Source of the DNA: Escherichia coli
GTDB taxonomy: Bacteria > Pseudomonadota > Gammaproteobacteria > Enterobacterales > Enterobacteriaceae
Reading direction: 5' to 3' (one strand)
NCBI RefSeq assembly: GCF_044324875.1
Contig: NZ_CP172185.1
Length of the DNA stretch: 64,000 bases
The translations under genes were made by a program, and so were the position numbers. Positions 1-8,660 of the stretch are shown here, piece by piece. The notes beneath the pieces were generated by a model that was not told the origin of the DNA, did not search any database, and was given only the letters and a program-made list of their open reading frames with translations. Positions within the stretch are counted from its first letter, which is position 1; each line of letters starts with the position of its first letter.

Positions 1-1523
<1,523 letters not shown>

Positions 1524-1786
1524 GAAGGTGAATAAGTGATAGCCCAATCGCCTTTCTGCATTTCATTCACAAAGCGCCAAACCTGAGAAGCACCAGAGCG
1601 AACTGTGCCTGGCTTAGTCTGTGGCTCAAGCTCCTGATACCGGATAAACAACTGCTCTCTTGAGCATCCAGGTTTCACATAGGGAGCGAGCTGCGACCAA
1701 CCAATTGCAACAACCTGTTTGTCTCTGAAGTCGTCGTACAATTTTCCGCCATCACCGCGGATCATCCACATCTTAGTCGCCACAAT
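1524..1786 (-). pseudogene. 5' portion of the IS-interrupted ORF (N-terminus (V/M)ATKMWMIRGDGGKLYDDFRDKQVVAIGW..)
   Basis: Reverse-strand ORF with AGGA about 6 nt upstream of a GTG/ATG start near 1771-1786; protein-like sequence through about codon 85, after which the frame runs into IS-derived sequence. Confidence 0.4.
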
Positions 1787-1893
1787 AATTCCTTCTGAAA
1801 ATACTTCATCGTTATACCGGGACGTGATCATTCCATTCAGCCACCTTATCCAGGGGAAAAACACCGATAAGATGGCTAATCAAAATGTCTGTT

Positions 1894-4800
1894 CTAAACC
1901 TGACGCCTATCAAGACTATTATAAATAGCCTCAATCTCACCTTTCAGGTTATCACCAGAGTAAACCATCGATGTATCGTATCGTTCATATCGCGCTTCCC
2001 GTGTCGCACTAAACCAGTTGAACGATCCCACGCATAGCAAACCATCATCACCAATAACAATTTTGCTATGAACACGGTTTACCAGCTTTGTAGCAATACC
2101 CAGCGCATTCAGTTTCTCCAGCGCCGCTTTAAGGTTCTGCTGCTTCTCTTTTCGCTTCTCAAAATCTTTATGTTCAGTGTTATAGCTTCTGTCAGTGACT
2201 ATCGTGACGTTAATTCCACGTGAACACGCCGCAATCATGGAATCAAGAAAACCCGTTTGCTCCAGCTTTTGCCAGGTCAGCCATGGAGAAACTATCGTGA
2301 TGTGTTTATCGGTATTTTCAAACGTCTGATTCAGGAAATTATCATGCTGCTCCACACCATGGAGTGTGTAGATTTTGGTCTCGGAAGTTTTTAAATCCTT
2401 ACGCTCTTTATAATCAAAAGAGAGCGCATTCTTCTCGGACTCAAAGAGATATTTTGCCAGTAATCCCCGCGGAGATGAGGCTGGCTGGATCTCAAACAGG
2501 TCCATATCGCCGAAGACCAGGAAACTGTCCTTCGCACGGGAGACAGCAACGTTCAGCATGCTGTTATCGCTATCAATAAACCCGCCATCCTCATGCTTTG
2601 AATAGACTGGCGAGAATATAACAATCGCTCTTTCCGCCCCCTGAAGAGAATGCACGGTGCCCACGGTGAGCGACGTTTCATTCGCGCCTGTACTGATGCC
2701 TTGTTTACCCAGCGCCTGTTTGATAGTCGATACCTGCGCGCTAAAAGGCGTCACGATACCGACAACTTCATGAAGCGATTTGCCGTAATGCGCTTCAATA
2801 TCTTGCTGGTTATCTGTCAGCCAGGCAGCTATCGTTTCAGCCTCAAGCAAATTATATCGACTTCCGCTACTTGCCAGCGCTCCTTTACCATCAATATGGA
2901 GATAACCCATTGCGGGCATTAAATTGCTCTCTTCACGCCCTCTTTTAGGCAACAACTTACCGTGATAGCAGAGCGTATTACAGTATCCAATAATATTATC
3001 GAAGCACCGGCGGTGTTCATATAGGTACATACCACGAGCCAGTTCGGGATCATATTGATAGCGCGAAGCAAACTGAGCTATTTTCATAACGCTGCCAGAT
3101 GCGGCACTTTTACCAAGGTCTGCGATTGCCGTATATTTCTCGGTAATCTCTTCTTGCGTACTGCCAGACAGAATTTTTTCCGCCAGCATGTTACCGATAT
3201 CAATCGCAGGAGCAATACTCCATATTGGCGGGATCTGCTCCGTATCGCCAATCACTAATGCCTTCTTAGCTAATGCAAACGAGGCAGCAGCCACTTCAGG
3301 AAGCACCTGTCCGGCTTCATCGACAATGAGTAAATCGGCAAAATCATACAAATAACTTTTCTCGAATTTACGTTGTCCTTTGTGCTCACTTATCTGCATA
3401 TTGCCGGGCAGCATATAGCATGTCATCACCACACATGGAATGAGTTTCATTCGACGTTGCCAACGGGCAGTTACTCCTTTAGCGCCTTTTTTCTTCTTCT
3501 CTTCCTGCAGATCATCAATTCTGGCCATATCCATCAGCCAACGACCTTCCCAGTAGTGAGTCGTCAGTAAAAATGCAGGGAAGCGAATCTGCGTATCAGC
3601 CAGTTCATCGGCCTGTGAGAAGCTCAGTTCCTCGTCGCCCTCATACCCTAAATCAAGTGTCAGCCTCTGCCACTCCTGAACCGCCTGCTGTTCTTTAAGA
3701 ACGATTTCATGGGCGGAGTCAATCTGCTTCCGGTATGTTGTTTGCTCGCGTTCAGCGGAATTGAGCAGCCCATCAATATTACGTTCGATAGTTTCAGGAT
3801 CAGACCACTGATTTCCTGCAATCAGCGCGCCTAATTTATCTTCGAGAAACAGCTGTATTTGGTACTGTCGCTTATTGCGAACCGCCGGGAGCCAGGAAAA
3901 TAATGAATAGATCAGTGATTCACCGGCGCGATATTTTTTCCATTCCGTTTTAGCACTCTTCAGTAGAGTAACTTTTTGTTCTTGCCCGGAGAGTAATTTA
4001 TTTAAATTATCGAGATATTGCTCAATGTTATCAGCAATAAGCTCACGCGCCGCCCGAACCTGGCTTAACGTTTGCCATGTTGCGTTCAGTCTTATCAGTT
4101 GCTCGGATTTTGCTGCCAACTGACCATGCAGGAGTTCAATGACCTTTTCAGGGGATGAACACTCTTTTTCAGGAAAGGCTGCCTTAGCCTTCTCCAGATA
4201 AAACAGCAGTGCATCCTCTACATACTCTTTTGACTCAACCTGGTTGAAGAAATCTTCAGTTTGATATTTTTTGGCGGCCTCAGCTTTACGAGTGCTTGAG
4301 GGAAAATAAGCGCCGAAGCTTTTCAGCTCTGGCAACCATCGTCCGGCCATCGCACCGGTGCCCTGGGAAAAATCTTTCCCGAACGCCTCGATAATGTTCG
4401 TGACAGCCTGGTTATTCGTTGAGGTCGCGATAATGACCGGAGGCTCAGATTTTTCGAGAGCCGCTCGGGCCCACTGCGTGGCGATGATAGAAAGCACCAG
4501 CGTGGTTTTTCCGGTTCCCGGAGGGCCATTAACAGCAAGGATATCGCCATGTCTGGCATCCAGAAAATGGCTTAAGGCATCGCGCTGAGCCTTTGCCAGC
4601 GGAAACTTATCTCCGGAGTGTCCAAGCCTGTCGCTGAATTTTGCTCCTGGGGCCAGCAAAGACTCTGCAGCATGAACCTCTCGCGAGGCGAAGCGATTGA
4701 AGAGTGGCACATCCTTCTTGCAAACAAGCAGGTGATCATAAAGCGAAAGGATATGGAAACTGGCACCGCCAGATTGCGCCGTTTTAACAATATAACCGTG

Positions 4801-5409
4801 CTCAGCGAGTTCATATTGCTCAGGATTTTTAATCCAGTCGCCGGCAACGTTCTTCAGCAGCCTCTCTGAATCATCCAGATATTGACGCCAATCCTGCTGC
4901 AAGGCTGCATATCGTGCTTCCCGTTCTTCATCCGTTTCGGCAGTGTTATCAACGCTGTCATCAAACTTGATAGAGAATGACGTATGTGTCGTTTTATATT
5001 TGTCATACTGCTCAATCTCACCAATCGAAAATGCCCCTTTTGGCAAAGGTTCAAGCAGGTCTCTGGGAATGGAGGTCGCTGGCGTCGGGTATAAAAAACC
5101 CTCACGGCTTAGCAAGGCTGGCGTCACTAGCGGGGTAACAATATCAGGCACGCCTGCGGAACGGTCCTTACCATGCTGCAGTAACCGAAAATAAACTTTT
5201 GGGCGCAAGACGACATCGACCGTTTCGACATCGTCTTTTTCTCCCTCAAAAAATTTACTGACAATCGCTTCGTCAAGACGTCCCGCCGCTATCCCATGCC
5301 AGTGAGTGAAATTTTGGGCGTCTTTCCGTTCAAAGCTGCCCTTTCCTGACTCAGCATCCGCAAGCGAGTTGCGCCAGTATGAGGCAAACCCTAAAGCATT
5401 TTCATCCAT
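1894..5409 (-). CDS. Superfamily-1 (Upf1/DNA2-like, COG1112-type) helicase fused to a C-terminal phospholipase-D (HKD) family nuclease domain; candidate defense protein (Mokosh type II-like architecture)
   Basis: 1171-aa ORF. Walker [13 protein letters not shown]; motif [10 protein letters not shown]; motif [14 protein letters not shown]; motif [20 protein letters not shown]-terminal HKD motif [25 protein letters not shown] about 8 nt upstream of ATG. Confidence 0.85.
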
Positions 5410-5734
5410 TACCAGTCCTATGACTCAATGAAATCCATTGATTTATCGAATATAAAATCACCGTATGGATAACTATTGTCCACGTTGAAAGGCTGGCTGC
5501 AATGTTTTGTTCACGCTTCGATACAAATACTCAGGTTATACGGAGTTCAGAAAACGACCATATCATGCTGCATGGCACATAAAAGCTTTATAACCGAAGC
5601 AGCAAAGGATTACCGGCTGCGCAGCACGCCACGAAAGCCCGTGAGCTCTACTGGACAGCGTTCAGTGCAATATTGGAGTCTGTAAGTCCAGAAAATATCA
5701 CTGTCGAAGATGGTTCTGTATGTAGGTGCGCCAG

Positions 5735-6112
5735 CTATTGTTTTGTCCGATGCTTGCGAATAAAAGCATTCAAAATGTCGCCTTCACCATGCATGACAGA
5801 AAAAGAATATTCACATTCTTTCTTTATCAAGATTCCACATAATTCCTTGTGCAAATCTACATTAACTCCCTTTCCTTTCTGTGCTTTCTTCACACCGAGC
5901 TCACATGAACTGATTAATTCAACGTTACAGGGTTTCTTCAAATAATTCACACCATCAATTAAGCCCTGGAGAATGCATCTATTTGCGGTCGTATTACTGT
6001 AGGAGAAGGTCAGATATTTTATTTTCCCTTCACATTCCAGCACAACTTCCGCCGAACCTTCACGTGTTGCAGCATCACAACTTCCTGTTGAATATATTTT
6101 CACCATCTTCAT
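5735..6112 (-). CDS. Small RNase HI-like fold protein with substituted catalytic residues (predicted inactive pseudo-RNase H)
   Basis: 125-aa ORF; by-eye alignment to E. coli RNase HI: VKIYSTGSCD vs VEIFTDGSCL, NTTANRCILQG vs RTTNNRMELMA, VELISSCELG vs VILSTDSQYV, VNVDLHKEL..HGEGD vs KNVDLWQRL..HAGHPENERCD, with the DEDD positions replaced. Strong SD (GGGGAAAGG) upstream. Confidence 0.55.
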   Translation of the reverse strand: MKMVKIYSTGSCDAATREGSAEVVLECEGKIKYLTFSYSNTTANRCILQGLIDGVNYLKKPCNVELISSCELGVKKAQKGKGVNVDLHKELCGILIKKECEYSFSVMHGEGDILNAFIRKHRTKQ

Positions 6113-6180
6113 TTTGTACCTTTCCCCTTACCAAACGAATCATGACATCCTATATCAAAGGCATTCTCGTCAAAACTTTA

Positions 6181-6960
6181 CTATCTCAGTAAATTCTCCC
6201 GATGCCACTCCAGATAACAATACGATTCAACAGAAAACGCCTTTATTTTCTCCGGCAACAAACATTGCTCTTTAACGCTAATATCCAGCTCCTTACTAAT
6301 TAATAAATGCCCATCGTTCTCAAACGAAATCCATCCCTGATCGAATAGAATATCAATATGCGCAGCCAATATAATTCCATTAAAAGGATCAAGACGTTCA
6401 TTTCCATTCTCGCAGGCAGCCCACGGCTTTATATGGCTGGCACGCAGTAAAGGTGCAAAAGTCGTTCCCGTAACAGGGCATGCCGGATACAACATGAGAC
6501 AATTTTTCCGAAAGGTACCTTGCCCCAGCCGTGCCGCAATCAGCTGCTCGCGTACGGTATCTTCAATACTTTTATCCTGCTGAATAGCAAGACAGTCACG
6601 TTGTGCCTGTTCATCTCTATCAGTCGATATTAACGAAAGAACGCGCTGCTCAATTGCACTATCAGAAAGCACACTCAATCGCTGATGAACACGCTGCGCT
6701 GAATGAGAAAGCGCAGCAGGAGCACCCTGCTCGTCACGCCAACCGACACGCACATCACTAAGCCAGGAATCAAAACGGTCACGACTATTTTTCAGACTAT
6801 TGTGAAACTCGCTGGCAGTTTTGCCCGCTCCAAATCGAGGATAAAACAAGGCAAAAGCCTCTTTCCATTTCTGAACACCCAGTCCTGCGGGTGGTTGAGA
6901 GTTACCATACTTCGACAAATACCACGCCACTTCAAGCAAATCGTCTTCAGAGCTATTCAA
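6181..6960 (-). CDS. HNH-family endonuclease (259 aa); apparent TTG start
   Basis: C-terminal HNH motif ..LRASHIKPWAACENGNERLDPFNGIILAAHIDILFDQGW..; frame is open only back to a TAA at 6988-6990 and the first plausible start is TTG at 6958-6960 with AGGA 7 nt upstream; no in-frame ATG near the N-terminus. Confidence 0.7.
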   Translation of the reverse strand: MNSSEDDLLEVAWYLSKYGNSQPPAGLGVQKWKEAFALFYPRFGAGKTASEFHNSLKNSRDRFDSWLSDVRVGWRDEQGAPAALSHSAQRVHQRLSVLSDSAIEQRVLSLISTDRDEQAQRDCLAIQQDKSIEDTVREQLIAARLGQGTFRKNCLMLYPACPVTGTTFAPLLRASHIKPWAACENGNERLDPFNGIILAAHIDILFDQGWISFENDGHLLISKELDISVKEQCLLPEKIKAFSVESYCYLEWHRENLLR

Positions 6961-7030
6961 TATTACGTCCTGTTTTTGCAGAGTAAATTATCACCAGATT
7001 ATATCTGAAAAAATCATTTACTAAACTGAT

Positions 7031-7174
7031 CTGCTTACCTGCAAAACGGTACTGCAAACGCTAATACTCAGAACCATTAAAAGGAACAAGCAGGTGCATA
7101 CCGCTGCCATCGGTCAGTTTGTACTGCTTATCCGTTGGCCTGGCTGTTCTGACCTTGATATCTGTTAACGCCAT
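7031..7174 (-). pseudogene. intB: 5' remnant of a P4-type tyrosine integrase (intB-like) adjacent to leuX; in-frame amber then loss of homology
   Basis: Reverse-strand ATG at 7174 with strong SD (GGGAGGGG) encodes MALTDIKVRTARPTDKQYKLTDGSGMHLLVPFNGSEY-stop-RLQYRFAGKQ, matching the conserved N-terminus of P4-family integrases; TAG at 7061-7063 sits where a conserved Trp is expected; no integrase-like sequence below about 7030. Confidence 0.75.
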
Positions 7175-7324
7175 GCTTATCCCCTCCCTGTTGGTACAAG
7201 CATTATCGAACCGGAAATACCATCATCTGTACCAACATGTGTTGGTAGATGTACGTTGATATCGGTTGACCTTGAGAGAGTTAATATAGCGAAAAAGGTA
7301 GGTAACTGCTGGATTTCAGGCATA

Positions 7325-7350
7325 AAAAAAGACCTCAGTTGAGGTCTATT
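7325..7350 (-). terminator. Rho-independent terminator downstream of leuX
   Basis: Hairpin GACCTCAGTTGAGGTC followed by a T-run on the minus strand immediately 3' of the tRNA. Confidence 0.7.
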
Positions 7351-7360
7351 TACATACTTT

Positions 7361-7445
7361 TGGTGCCGAAGGCCGGACTCGAACCGGCACGTATTTCTAC
7401 GGTTGATTTTGAATCAACTGCGTCTACCGATTTCGCCACTTCGGC
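7361..7445 (-). tRNA. leuX: tRNA-Leu (anticodon CAA)
   Basis: Reverse complement reads GCCGAAGTGGCGAAATCGGTAGACGCAGTTGATTCAAAATCAACCGTAGAAATACGTGCCGGTTCGAGTCCGGCCTTCGGCACCA: cloverleaf with CAA anticodon loop, long variable arm, encoded CCA. Confidence 0.92.
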
Positions 7446-7640
7446 ACTGAAGAGGTATGCGGAAAACGTTGTGGATTATACCTGTCGCACGCCACCATGC
7501 AAGCGCCAGCTTGCTCGCACCTCGCTAAGTGCTGAAATTTTCAGCATTGCATACAGCGATGTGTAACCTTTGTCACACTCCAGGCACCCCGCCCTGCCAT
7601 GCTCTACACTTCCCAGACAACACCAGAGAAGGACTAAAAA

Positions 7641-8660
7641 ATGTCGATGATAAAAAGCTATGCCGCAAAAGAAGCGGGCGGCGAACTGGAACTTTATGAG
7701 TACGATCCCGGTGAATTGAAGCCACAAGATGTTGAAGTGCAGGTGGATTACTGCGGGATCTGCCATTCCGATCTGTCGATGATCGACAACGAATGGGGAT
7801 TTTCACAATATCCGCTGGTTGCCGGGCATGAGGTGATTGGGCGCGTGGTGGCGCTCGGGAGCGCCGCGCAGGATAAAGGTTTGCAGGTCGGTCAGCGTGT
7901 CGGGATTGGCTGGACGGCACGCAGCTGCGGGCATTGCGATGCCTGTATTAGCGGTAATCAGATCAACTGCGAGCAAGGTGCGGTGCCAACAATTATGAAT
8001 CGCGGCGGTTTTGCCGAGAAGTTGCGTGCGGACTGGCAATGGGTGATTCCGCTGCCAGAAAATATTGATATCGAGTCTGCCGGGCCGCTGTTGTGCGGCG
8101 GTATCACGGTCTTTAAACCACTGTTGATGCACCATATCACTGCCACCAGCCGCGTTGGGGTAATTGGTATTGGCGGGCTGGGGCATATCGCTATAAAACT
8201 TCTGCACGCAATGGGATGCGAGGTGACAGCCTTTAGTTCGAATCCGGCGAAAGAGCAGGAAGTGCTGGCGATGGGTGCCGATAAAGTGGTGAATAGCCGC
8301 GATCCGCAGGCACTGAGTGCCCTGGCAGGGCAGTTCGATCTCATTATCAACACCGTCAACGTCAGCCTCGACTGGCAGCCTTATTTTGAGGCGCTGACGT
8401 ATGGCGGTAATTTCCACACCGTCGGTGCGGTTCTCACGCCGCTGTCTGTTCCGGCCTTTACGTTAATTGCGGGCGATCGCAGTGTCTCAGGTTCGGCAAC
8501 CGGTACGCCTTATGAGCTGCGTAAGCTGATGCGCTTTGCCGCCCGCAGCAAGGTTGCGCCGACTACCGAACTGTTCCCGATGTCGAAAATTAACGACGCT
8601 ATCCAGCATGTACGCGATGGTAAAGCGCGCTACCGCGTGGTTCTGAAAGCCGACTTCTGA
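7641..8660 (+). CDS. ahr: NADPH-dependent aldehyde reductase (zinc-type alcohol dehydrogenase)
   Basis: 339-aa ORF; Zn-ADH motifs ([26 protein letters not shown]); matches E. coli Ahr/YjgB by recall. Confidence 0.9.

Follow-up and report, generated by a model that had tools for sequence, protein, structure and literature searches.

Within a stretch of 64,000 nucleotides of Escherichia coli DNA (RefSeq assembly GCF_044324875.1, contig NZ_CP172185.1), which we refer to as the window, we analyzed a non-coding interval on the minus strand together with the genes on both sides of it. Along the minus strand, the order of features is the tRNA-Leu (CAA) gene leuX (7361-7445), which is the integration site of the island; the remnant of a P4-type integrase gene (6962-7174); a gene for an HNH_2 endonuclease (6181-6960); an RNase HI-like ORF of 125 aa (5735-6112); the interval itself (5410-5734); the helicase-PLD defence gene mkoC, which encodes 1171 aa (1894-5409); and an Mrr-like gene. 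The ahr/yjgB gene lies on the far side of leuX and the DNA is 96-99.7% identical to E. coli chromosomes; the locus is therefore the leuX island of E. coli. The interval measures exactly 325 bp, from the stop codon of the RNase H-like ORF (TAG, 5737-5735) to the ATG of the 1171-aa ORF at 5409, and it constitutes the 5' non-coding part of SG150, a published Mokosh type II construct.

A first-pass annotation had reported an unusually long gap at 5410-5734, inside a candidate defence cassette of HNH, RNase H-like and helicase-PLD genes, and had proposed that it holds an internal promoter, a regulatory RNA or a small unannotated ORF. These coordinates proved exact, and Pfam searches bore out the identities of the neighbours (HNH_2; a weak RNase_H match of 24.3 bits, under the 25.8 cut-off; AAA_11, AAA_12 and PLDc_2). 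The tight spacing described for the HNH and RNase H-like genes amounts to 68 bp. The length of the gap turned out to be ordinary: within 50 kb of annotated sequence surrounding this locus in strain M7424, many co-directional gaps measure 100-260 bp, and one is 411 bp long. An interval of 325 bp is on the long side, yet normal for a boundary between transcription units.

The large gene encodes MkoC. The PADLOC MkoC profile matches it with 1688 bits, aligning residues 1-1169 with profile positions 1-1135 of 1136, and Pfam places AAA_11 at residues 272-487, AAA_12 at 776-969 and PLDc_2 at 1028-1143. Type II Mokosh is defined by one protein that joins an Upf1-like SF1 helicase at the N-terminus to a PLD-family nuclease at the C-terminus, and the gene is a self-contained, single-gene system of this type. 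Type II Mokosh was described as a single gene that protects E. coli, and the supplementary table of that study lists SG150, a segment of 3903 bp from E. coli 5-366-08_S1_C1, as a verified type II construct (Millman et al. 2022). The sequence of SG150 starts with GCTGGCGCGCCTACATACAG at the equivalent of window position 5735, 326 nt ahead of the ATG; it runs colinear with the window and differs at 9 of the first 399 nt (97.7% identity). Eight of these nine mismatches fall in the distal part of the gap and the ninth in the spacer between the candidate -35 and -10 elements described below, so that 5410-5532 contains a single one. The construct holds the whole gap and mkoC, without the HNH and RNase H-like genes, and defence was obtained from it under the native promoter (Millman et al. 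2022). Since the gap and mkoC alone suffice for defence, SG150 provides strong but indirect support for a promoter within the gap; read-through from the vector, which is formally possible, is the only caveat. The interval was treated in that study only as 'intergenic space to include the native promoter', and the text on SG150 describes no promoter, start site or conserved module for it (Millman et al. 2022). In substance, then, the gap is known, as the ordinary native promoter region of a verified defence gene; what is modestly new is the delineation of a portable, constrained module of ~100 bp and the neutrality of the remaining spacer.

The genes upstream of the gap have a different standing. 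In a phmmer comparison, the 125-aa protein aligned with E. coli RNase HI at E ~1e-5 over its N-terminal half (residues 2-69). In this ungapped alignment, the catalytic residues D10 and E48 of RNase HI correspond to T9 and I47, and D70 corresponds to S69, one residue past the aligned region. Because the catalytic carboxylates are replaced, the protein is probably inactive as a nuclease and would represent a dead RNase H fold. The family it belongs to is tiny (11 clusters among 5.8 billion proteins), and the gene was found only at the leuX locus of E. coli, in Klebsiella and on one metagenome contig. The Klebsiella locus carries it with the gap, mkoC and the Mrr-like gene, and its identity there is 97%, above that of mkoC itself. 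The protein may serve Mokosh as an optional accessory, or it may be a passenger unrelated to it.

Further upstream, the integrase remnant beside leuX (aa 1-69) is 55% identical to the integrase of the pheU island (tblastn, E 3e-16). The remnant abuts the start of the HNH gene, which suggests that most of an integrase gene once preceding mkoC, as one still does in the pheU and pheV islands, gave way to the HNH gene, alone or together with the RNase H-like gene. The HNH gene is missing in Klebsiella, the RNase H-like gene is missing in Citrobacter koseri and Salmonella, and both are missing in ~740 E. coli genomes and in most genera; across genomes, the HNH, RNase H-like and helicase-PLD genes did not consistently occur together. 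The upstream partners vary across relatives, and therefore the trio is not a conserved or obligate cassette but a local neighbourhood in a defence island. The placement of the gap inside a defence cassette is therefore misleading, as MkoC is a single-gene system and the HNH and RNase H-like genes are variable neighbours.

The distribution of the gap across genomes separates it into two parts. Among complete E. coli genomes, 880 match the gap, and 142 of them match it over its whole length. The other ~738 match only from 5410 to ~5563, at 82-85% identity. We sampled five of these partial-match loci: ST131 at pheU, O104:H4 at pheU, EV36 at pheV, KH_005 at pheV and a poultry isolate at selC. Four of the five carry mkoC without the HNH or RNase H-like gene, downstream of an integrase or TPR gene, and the remaining spacer at these four loci is unrelated to that of the window. 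The mkoC gene is frameshifted at the O104:H4 pheU locus, and at the KH_005 pheV locus an IS5 element stands in place of mkoC, with only part of the promoter left. More generally, the mkoC loci of pheU, pheV and selC islands (ST131, ST95, K1 and others) share with the window the same proximal ~150 bp, at 82-88% identity, and an orthologous mkoC; they differ in having an integrase or TPR gene upstream and a spacer (451 bp after the integrase) unrelated to 5564-5734. A 13-bp GC-rich hairpin closes the integrase gene upstream of mkoC at pheV-type loci, and for this reason mkoC most likely needs its own promoter there.

Outside E. coli, different genes are joined to the gap at different points. Klebsiella possesses the RNase H-like gene, the gap, mkoC and the Mrr-like gene, without HNH, and homology begins at 6153. 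In C. koseri the gap follows directly after HNH; a segment of 460 bp (6175-5716) that includes the RNase H-like gene is absent, and with it the 19 bp that follow the stop codon of the RNase H-like ORF (5716-5734). The junction lies at ~5708 in Salmonella, with an N-terminal integrase fragment, and at ~5528 in Citrobacter sp. NCU1, with 2.26 kb of other genes. In the latter locus (L004), two inserted ORFs of 371 and 227 aa (2828-4637) separate an HNH remnant from the promoter module of mkoC. The breakpoints of the upstream neighbours thus lie at ~5708-5716, ~5563 and ~5528 in different genomes. In plasmid and phage collections, the sole matches were three short, poorly annotated Salmonella records of the same locus.

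The Salmonella integrase fragment reads ~24 nt into sequence that is common with the window spacer, and the distal spacer is probably a remnant of integrase-proximal sequence. A decayed integrase fragment was considered as its identity; the window spacer itself gives no significant match to an integrase (E = 1.0), which leaves this as a plausible origin only.

To the 3' side of these breakpoints, the sequence is conserved with mkoC. Our scan for mkoC, taking one genome per species, retrieved ~28 full-length loci with 62-96% protein identity, from Escherichia, Citrobacter, Enterobacter, Pantoea, Cedecea, Providencia, Tatumella, Yersinia, Xenorhabdus, Erwinia, Phytobacter, Buttiauxella, Serratia and Aeromonas. 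Some 25 of these loci, from Enterobacterales and Aeromonas, are unrelated to one another upstream of ~5512 and conserved from 5511 to the ATG, whatever gene lies upstream, and per-column information is near zero upstream of 5512. An HMM of this ~100-bp module (5410-5511), searched with nhmmer, found one copy per locus, always abutting the start of mkoC, and no other in the 64-kb window. Homologous loci that lack the spacer had been named in advance as an observation that would refute the proposal; such loci exist for the distal two-thirds of the gap, whereas the proximal ~100-150 bp is retained.

The same division emerged from comparison with the closest relatives. Third codon positions of mkoC are ~86% identical in both Klebsiella and C. 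koseri. Similar values were observed for the distal gap, where 5734-5564 is 86.5% identical in Klebsiella and 88.8% in C. koseri, and 5563-5512 is 88.5% and 90.4% identical, respectively; the distal spacer as a whole (5512-5734, ~220 bp) therefore lies at 86.5-90%, near the third-position value, and with its breakpoints it has the appearance of unconstrained mosaic DNA. The proximal segment, 5511-5410, is identical at 102 of 102 positions in both species, where ~14 substitutions would be expected at the third-position rate. Perfect runs were compared for Klebsiella, C. koseri and Salmonella; for the first two, the longest stretch without a mismatch anywhere in the 4.2-kb alignment is 5532-5363 (170-173 bp). 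The Klebsiella comparison contains one other perfect run, of 131 bp, and recent recombination, rather than selection, could account for part of the 170-bp identity. Nevertheless, when pairwise identity and cross-genus conservation are taken together, purifying selection on the proximal part, with neutrality of the distal part, is the simplest reading. The distal spacer is best described as neutrally drifting filler, judging by its sequence; the ~220 bp from 5734 to 5512 would have been left by the recombination events that placed different genes before mkoC. In this distal part we found no Rfam match, terminator or consensus promoter.

The module begins with candidate elements of a sigma-70 promoter. 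Its 5' edge of conservation is an A-tract, AACAAAAC (5504-5511), which by its position may act as an UP-like element. A conserved TTGC block (5499-5502) follows, in which TTG is invariant or nearly so among 23 sequences; it opens the candidate -35 element TTGCAG (5497-5502), which reads TTGCGA in most genera. The candidate -10 element GACAAT (5475-5480) lies 16 bp after it, within the block TGGACAAT (5475-5482), where T, G, A, A and T are invariant; positions A-11, A-9 and T-7 of the hexamer are all invariant. Over both elements, the bases invariant among the 23 sequences are T and G at 5501-5500, A5479, A5477 and T5475. The distance between the two hexamers is fixed at 16 bp, apart from the ST131, EV36 and E. 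albertii type, which has 17 bp. The key sigma-70 positions (TTG; A-11 and T-7) are accordingly conserved in the orthologues, and conservation begins at the candidate promoter. Downstream, a CCAT block (5465-5468) contains a CA that is invariant or nearly so, and because this CA sits 8-9 nt after the -10 element, we place the putative start site at ~5466, +/-3. The predicted AT-rich 5' leader of ~57 nt (5410-5466) contains two further conserved blocks, TTTATAT (5450-5456) and AAATCAAT (5437-5444), and a Shine-Dalgarno sequence, AGGA (5416-5419), 6 nt before the ATG, with a conserved GGA at 5418-5416.

The performance of this candidate promoter in scoring was modest. The pair TTGCAG-16-GACAAT matches the consensus at 7 of 12 positions in the window, and its counterpart at 8 of 12 in most genera. 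Promoter prediction, which had been recommended as a check, gave a divided answer: a consensus scan that required at least 9 of 12 matches left the mkoC strand of the gap without a promoter, and an approximate sigma-70 PWM, built from compilation frequencies, lists TTGCAG-16-GACAAT with 6.6 bits as the third-best sense-strand match in the gap. In the window, TGGACA-17-GATTTT (5482-5454) and one other site score slightly higher on this matrix; the TTGCnn/GAnAAT pair was the best match in 15 of 31 other mkoC upstream regions scanned. We propose TTGCAG-16-GACAAT as a candidate -35/-10 assignment, rivalled by TGGACA-17-GATTTT; on either assignment, the promoter lies within ~5502-5449. A scan of 5200-6300 for GC-rich hairpins followed by a T-run returned no terminator-like site. 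With no predicted terminator behind the RNase H-like gene, transcripts that enter from upstream may contribute to mkoC expression at the window locus.

These observations make it probable that the gap is the upstream region of a stand-alone mkoC, with a portable promoter-leader module in its last ~100 bp and filler in the rest. The A-tract, the -35 element TTGCAG, the 16-bp spacer, the -10 element GACAAT, a start near 5466, the ~57-nt leader and AGGA would be the parts of this module, and together they would give mkoC its own, probably modest, sigma-70 transcription, independent of the upstream genes. Which hexamers act as -35 and -10, where transcription starts and what the leader does are provisional assignments from the alignment. 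A promoter at this position explains why conservation starts where it does, and why the invariant bases fall on key sigma-70 positions. Of the options that had been raised for the interval, it is the internal promoter that the comparative conservation and the native-promoter construct SG150 support. The likeness to an ordinary sigma-70 promoter and 5' UTR of a horizontally transferred gene is close, with the same elements, the 16-bp spacing, the A-rich tract, the Shine-Dalgarno placement and the adjoining gene; the differences are that the mkoC hexamers are weak (7-8 of 12) and that the leader is conserved beyond the needs of a minimal UTR.

For discovery the result matters little, since the gap is the expected promoter region and the apparent cassette a chance neighbourhood. 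It does define the minimal portable unit of enterobacterial type II Mokosh as ~100 bp of upstream sequence plus mkoC. These 100 bp are far more constrained than the neighbouring sequence and thus offer a defined mutagenesis target for Mokosh regulation, in which the A-tract, TTGCAG-16-GACAAT, the dyad described below and the leader blocks are the sites to alter.

The conservation of the leader leads to a further possibility, which we consider rather unlikely, that the ~100-bp module is more than a constitutive promoter and serves as a regulated switch travelling with mkoC. This reading is based on the unstructured conserved leader blocks (TTTATAT and AAATCAAT), on a dyad over the -10 element and start site, and on a palindrome found in most genera. 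The dyad, TGGACAATAGTTATCCA (5466-5482), is imperfect in the window, where it overlaps the -10 element and the predicted start site as a candidate operator; it is perfect in ST131-type loci, and only TGG...CCA is conserved across the family. In most mkoC promoters outside E. coli, an inverted repeat TGCGA-N6-TCGCA overlaps the -35 element and the spacer, where an operator would be placed. It was observed ~95-80 nt upstream of mkoC at L006, L009, L011, L012, L016, L017, L020, L026-L028 and L030, and its window equivalent (5501-5486) is degenerate (TGCAG CCAGCC TTTCA). No regulator gene was found linked to this palindrome in the mkoC loci. The cross-genus conservation of the leader, together with the palindrome, suggests a regulator, and the candidate sites could serve an Enterobacterales-wide host regulator or MkoC itself. 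The leader blocks could also be an S1/AU-rich translation enhancer, a second promoter or regulator sites. If the module were such a switch, Mokosh expression would be tied to infection or stress, and the 170-bp identity amid 14% synonymous divergence would reflect dense regulatory constraint.

Searches for sites of known regulators gave little. The sequence TCGATAAATC at 5449-5440 matches 9 of 10 positions of the H-NS nucleation motif TCGATAAATT; matches with one mismatch number 8 in the window against 5.7 expected, which is no evidence for such a site. An IHF-like WATCAA-N4-TT pattern over the conserved AAATCAAT...TT columns usually has T in place of the final purine and carries low information, and we keep it as a lead. 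Inspection of the alignment by eye for DnaA-box, LexA-box, CRP and sigma-54 patterns revealed no match that was consistent among the sequences. A terminator or attenuator in the leader was also considered; TATGGACAATAGTTGTCCATA with a T-run reaches a score at ST131-type loci alone, and other loci do not conserve it.

Improbable, in our judgement, is a single operon of HNH, RNase H-like gene and mkoC that is transcribed from upstream of HNH, with the conserved block serving as a translation-initiation region or leader. The lack of a predicted intrinsic terminator in the gap and the weakness of the hexamers would agree with it, as would the locus of Serratia marcescens (L033), where a type I restriction gene, hsdR (1688-4933), ends 67 nt before mkoC (5001-8519) and only the 3' half of the leader module is present. 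A related arrangement occurs in Yersinia artesiana (L021), where the module is retained from the -10 element onward behind a 3' remnant resembling hsdR; the leader half is thus retained at both loci even where the promoter half has been replaced. Against a common operon, conservation begins at the A-tract and TTG and not at the leader, mkoC occurs without these neighbours at several of the sampled E. coli loci and in many genera, the upstream integrase of pheV-type loci ends in a strong hairpin, and SG150 works without the HNH or RNase H-like gene.

A structured regulatory RNA, whether an sRNA, a riboswitch-like leader or a guide-like RNA for the helicase-nuclease, we regard as very improbable. 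The leader shows a degree of conservation uncommon in a 5' UTR, RNA sensing by Mokosh has been proposed (Millman et al. 2022), and hairpins do occur, namely a 6-bp TCAATG/CATTGA hairpin at 5441-5425 in the window clade and a terminator-like hairpin in ST131-type loci. These hairpins are clade-specific, however, and the distal part of the gap evolves neutrally. A scan of 4900-6300 against Rfam, on both strands and at E <= 10, gave best values of E 2.6-6.4, far under gathering scores. Folding of the gap compared with shuffled sequences, again on both strands, gave z = +0.06 and -0.74, with no excess stability. Covariation across homologous loci, another recommended check, was absent from 23 orthologous leaders, for which RNAalifold returned -0.66 kcal/mol, 4 pairs and 0 compensatory changes. 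The regulatory RNA that had been offered as an option is therefore without signal in Rfam, folding and RNAalifold alike. As to the ST131-type hairpin, the dyad there (6055-6075 of L001, minus strand) forms a perfect hairpin with 9-bp arms followed by CGGTGGTTTT, which is terminator-like in this clade only.

The remaining option, a small unannotated protein gene, is hardly credible: the gap contains no ORF of at least 70 aa on either strand, and its candidates, a 69-aa ORF with a TTG start on the plus strand (5476-5685), minus-strand ORFs of 21-23 aa and, in some genera, ORFs of 9-13 codons from the conserved CCATG, vary between loci. The 69-aa ORF runs antisense through the promoter, its counterpart has 60 aa in Salmonella and 105 aa with an unrelated tail in Citrobacter NCU1, and its substitutions relative to Klebsiella number 7/7/10 on codon positions 1/2/3, with no third-position bias. 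The minus-strand mini-ORFs of the leader, including those from CCATG, differ between genera in frame, length or presence. Conserved frame and length with a third-position bias, as expected of a small protein, were thus not observed for any of these ORFs.

Mobile elements were also noted. In E. coli M7424 (L003/L050), the closest complete genome, a P4-like satellite lies between leuX and the HNH-mkoC block, at ~18098-29533 of L050; it contains integrase, psu, delta-like, Icd-like and primase-helicase genes, all absent from the window. On the other side of mkoC, an IS110-family element at ~239-1512 of the window (transposase ORF 340-1320, minus strand) splits the DUF8426/Mrr_cat restriction-like gene that follows mkoC. 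In intact Klebsiella loci, homology spans this insertion, so that window position 1513 joins window position 238.
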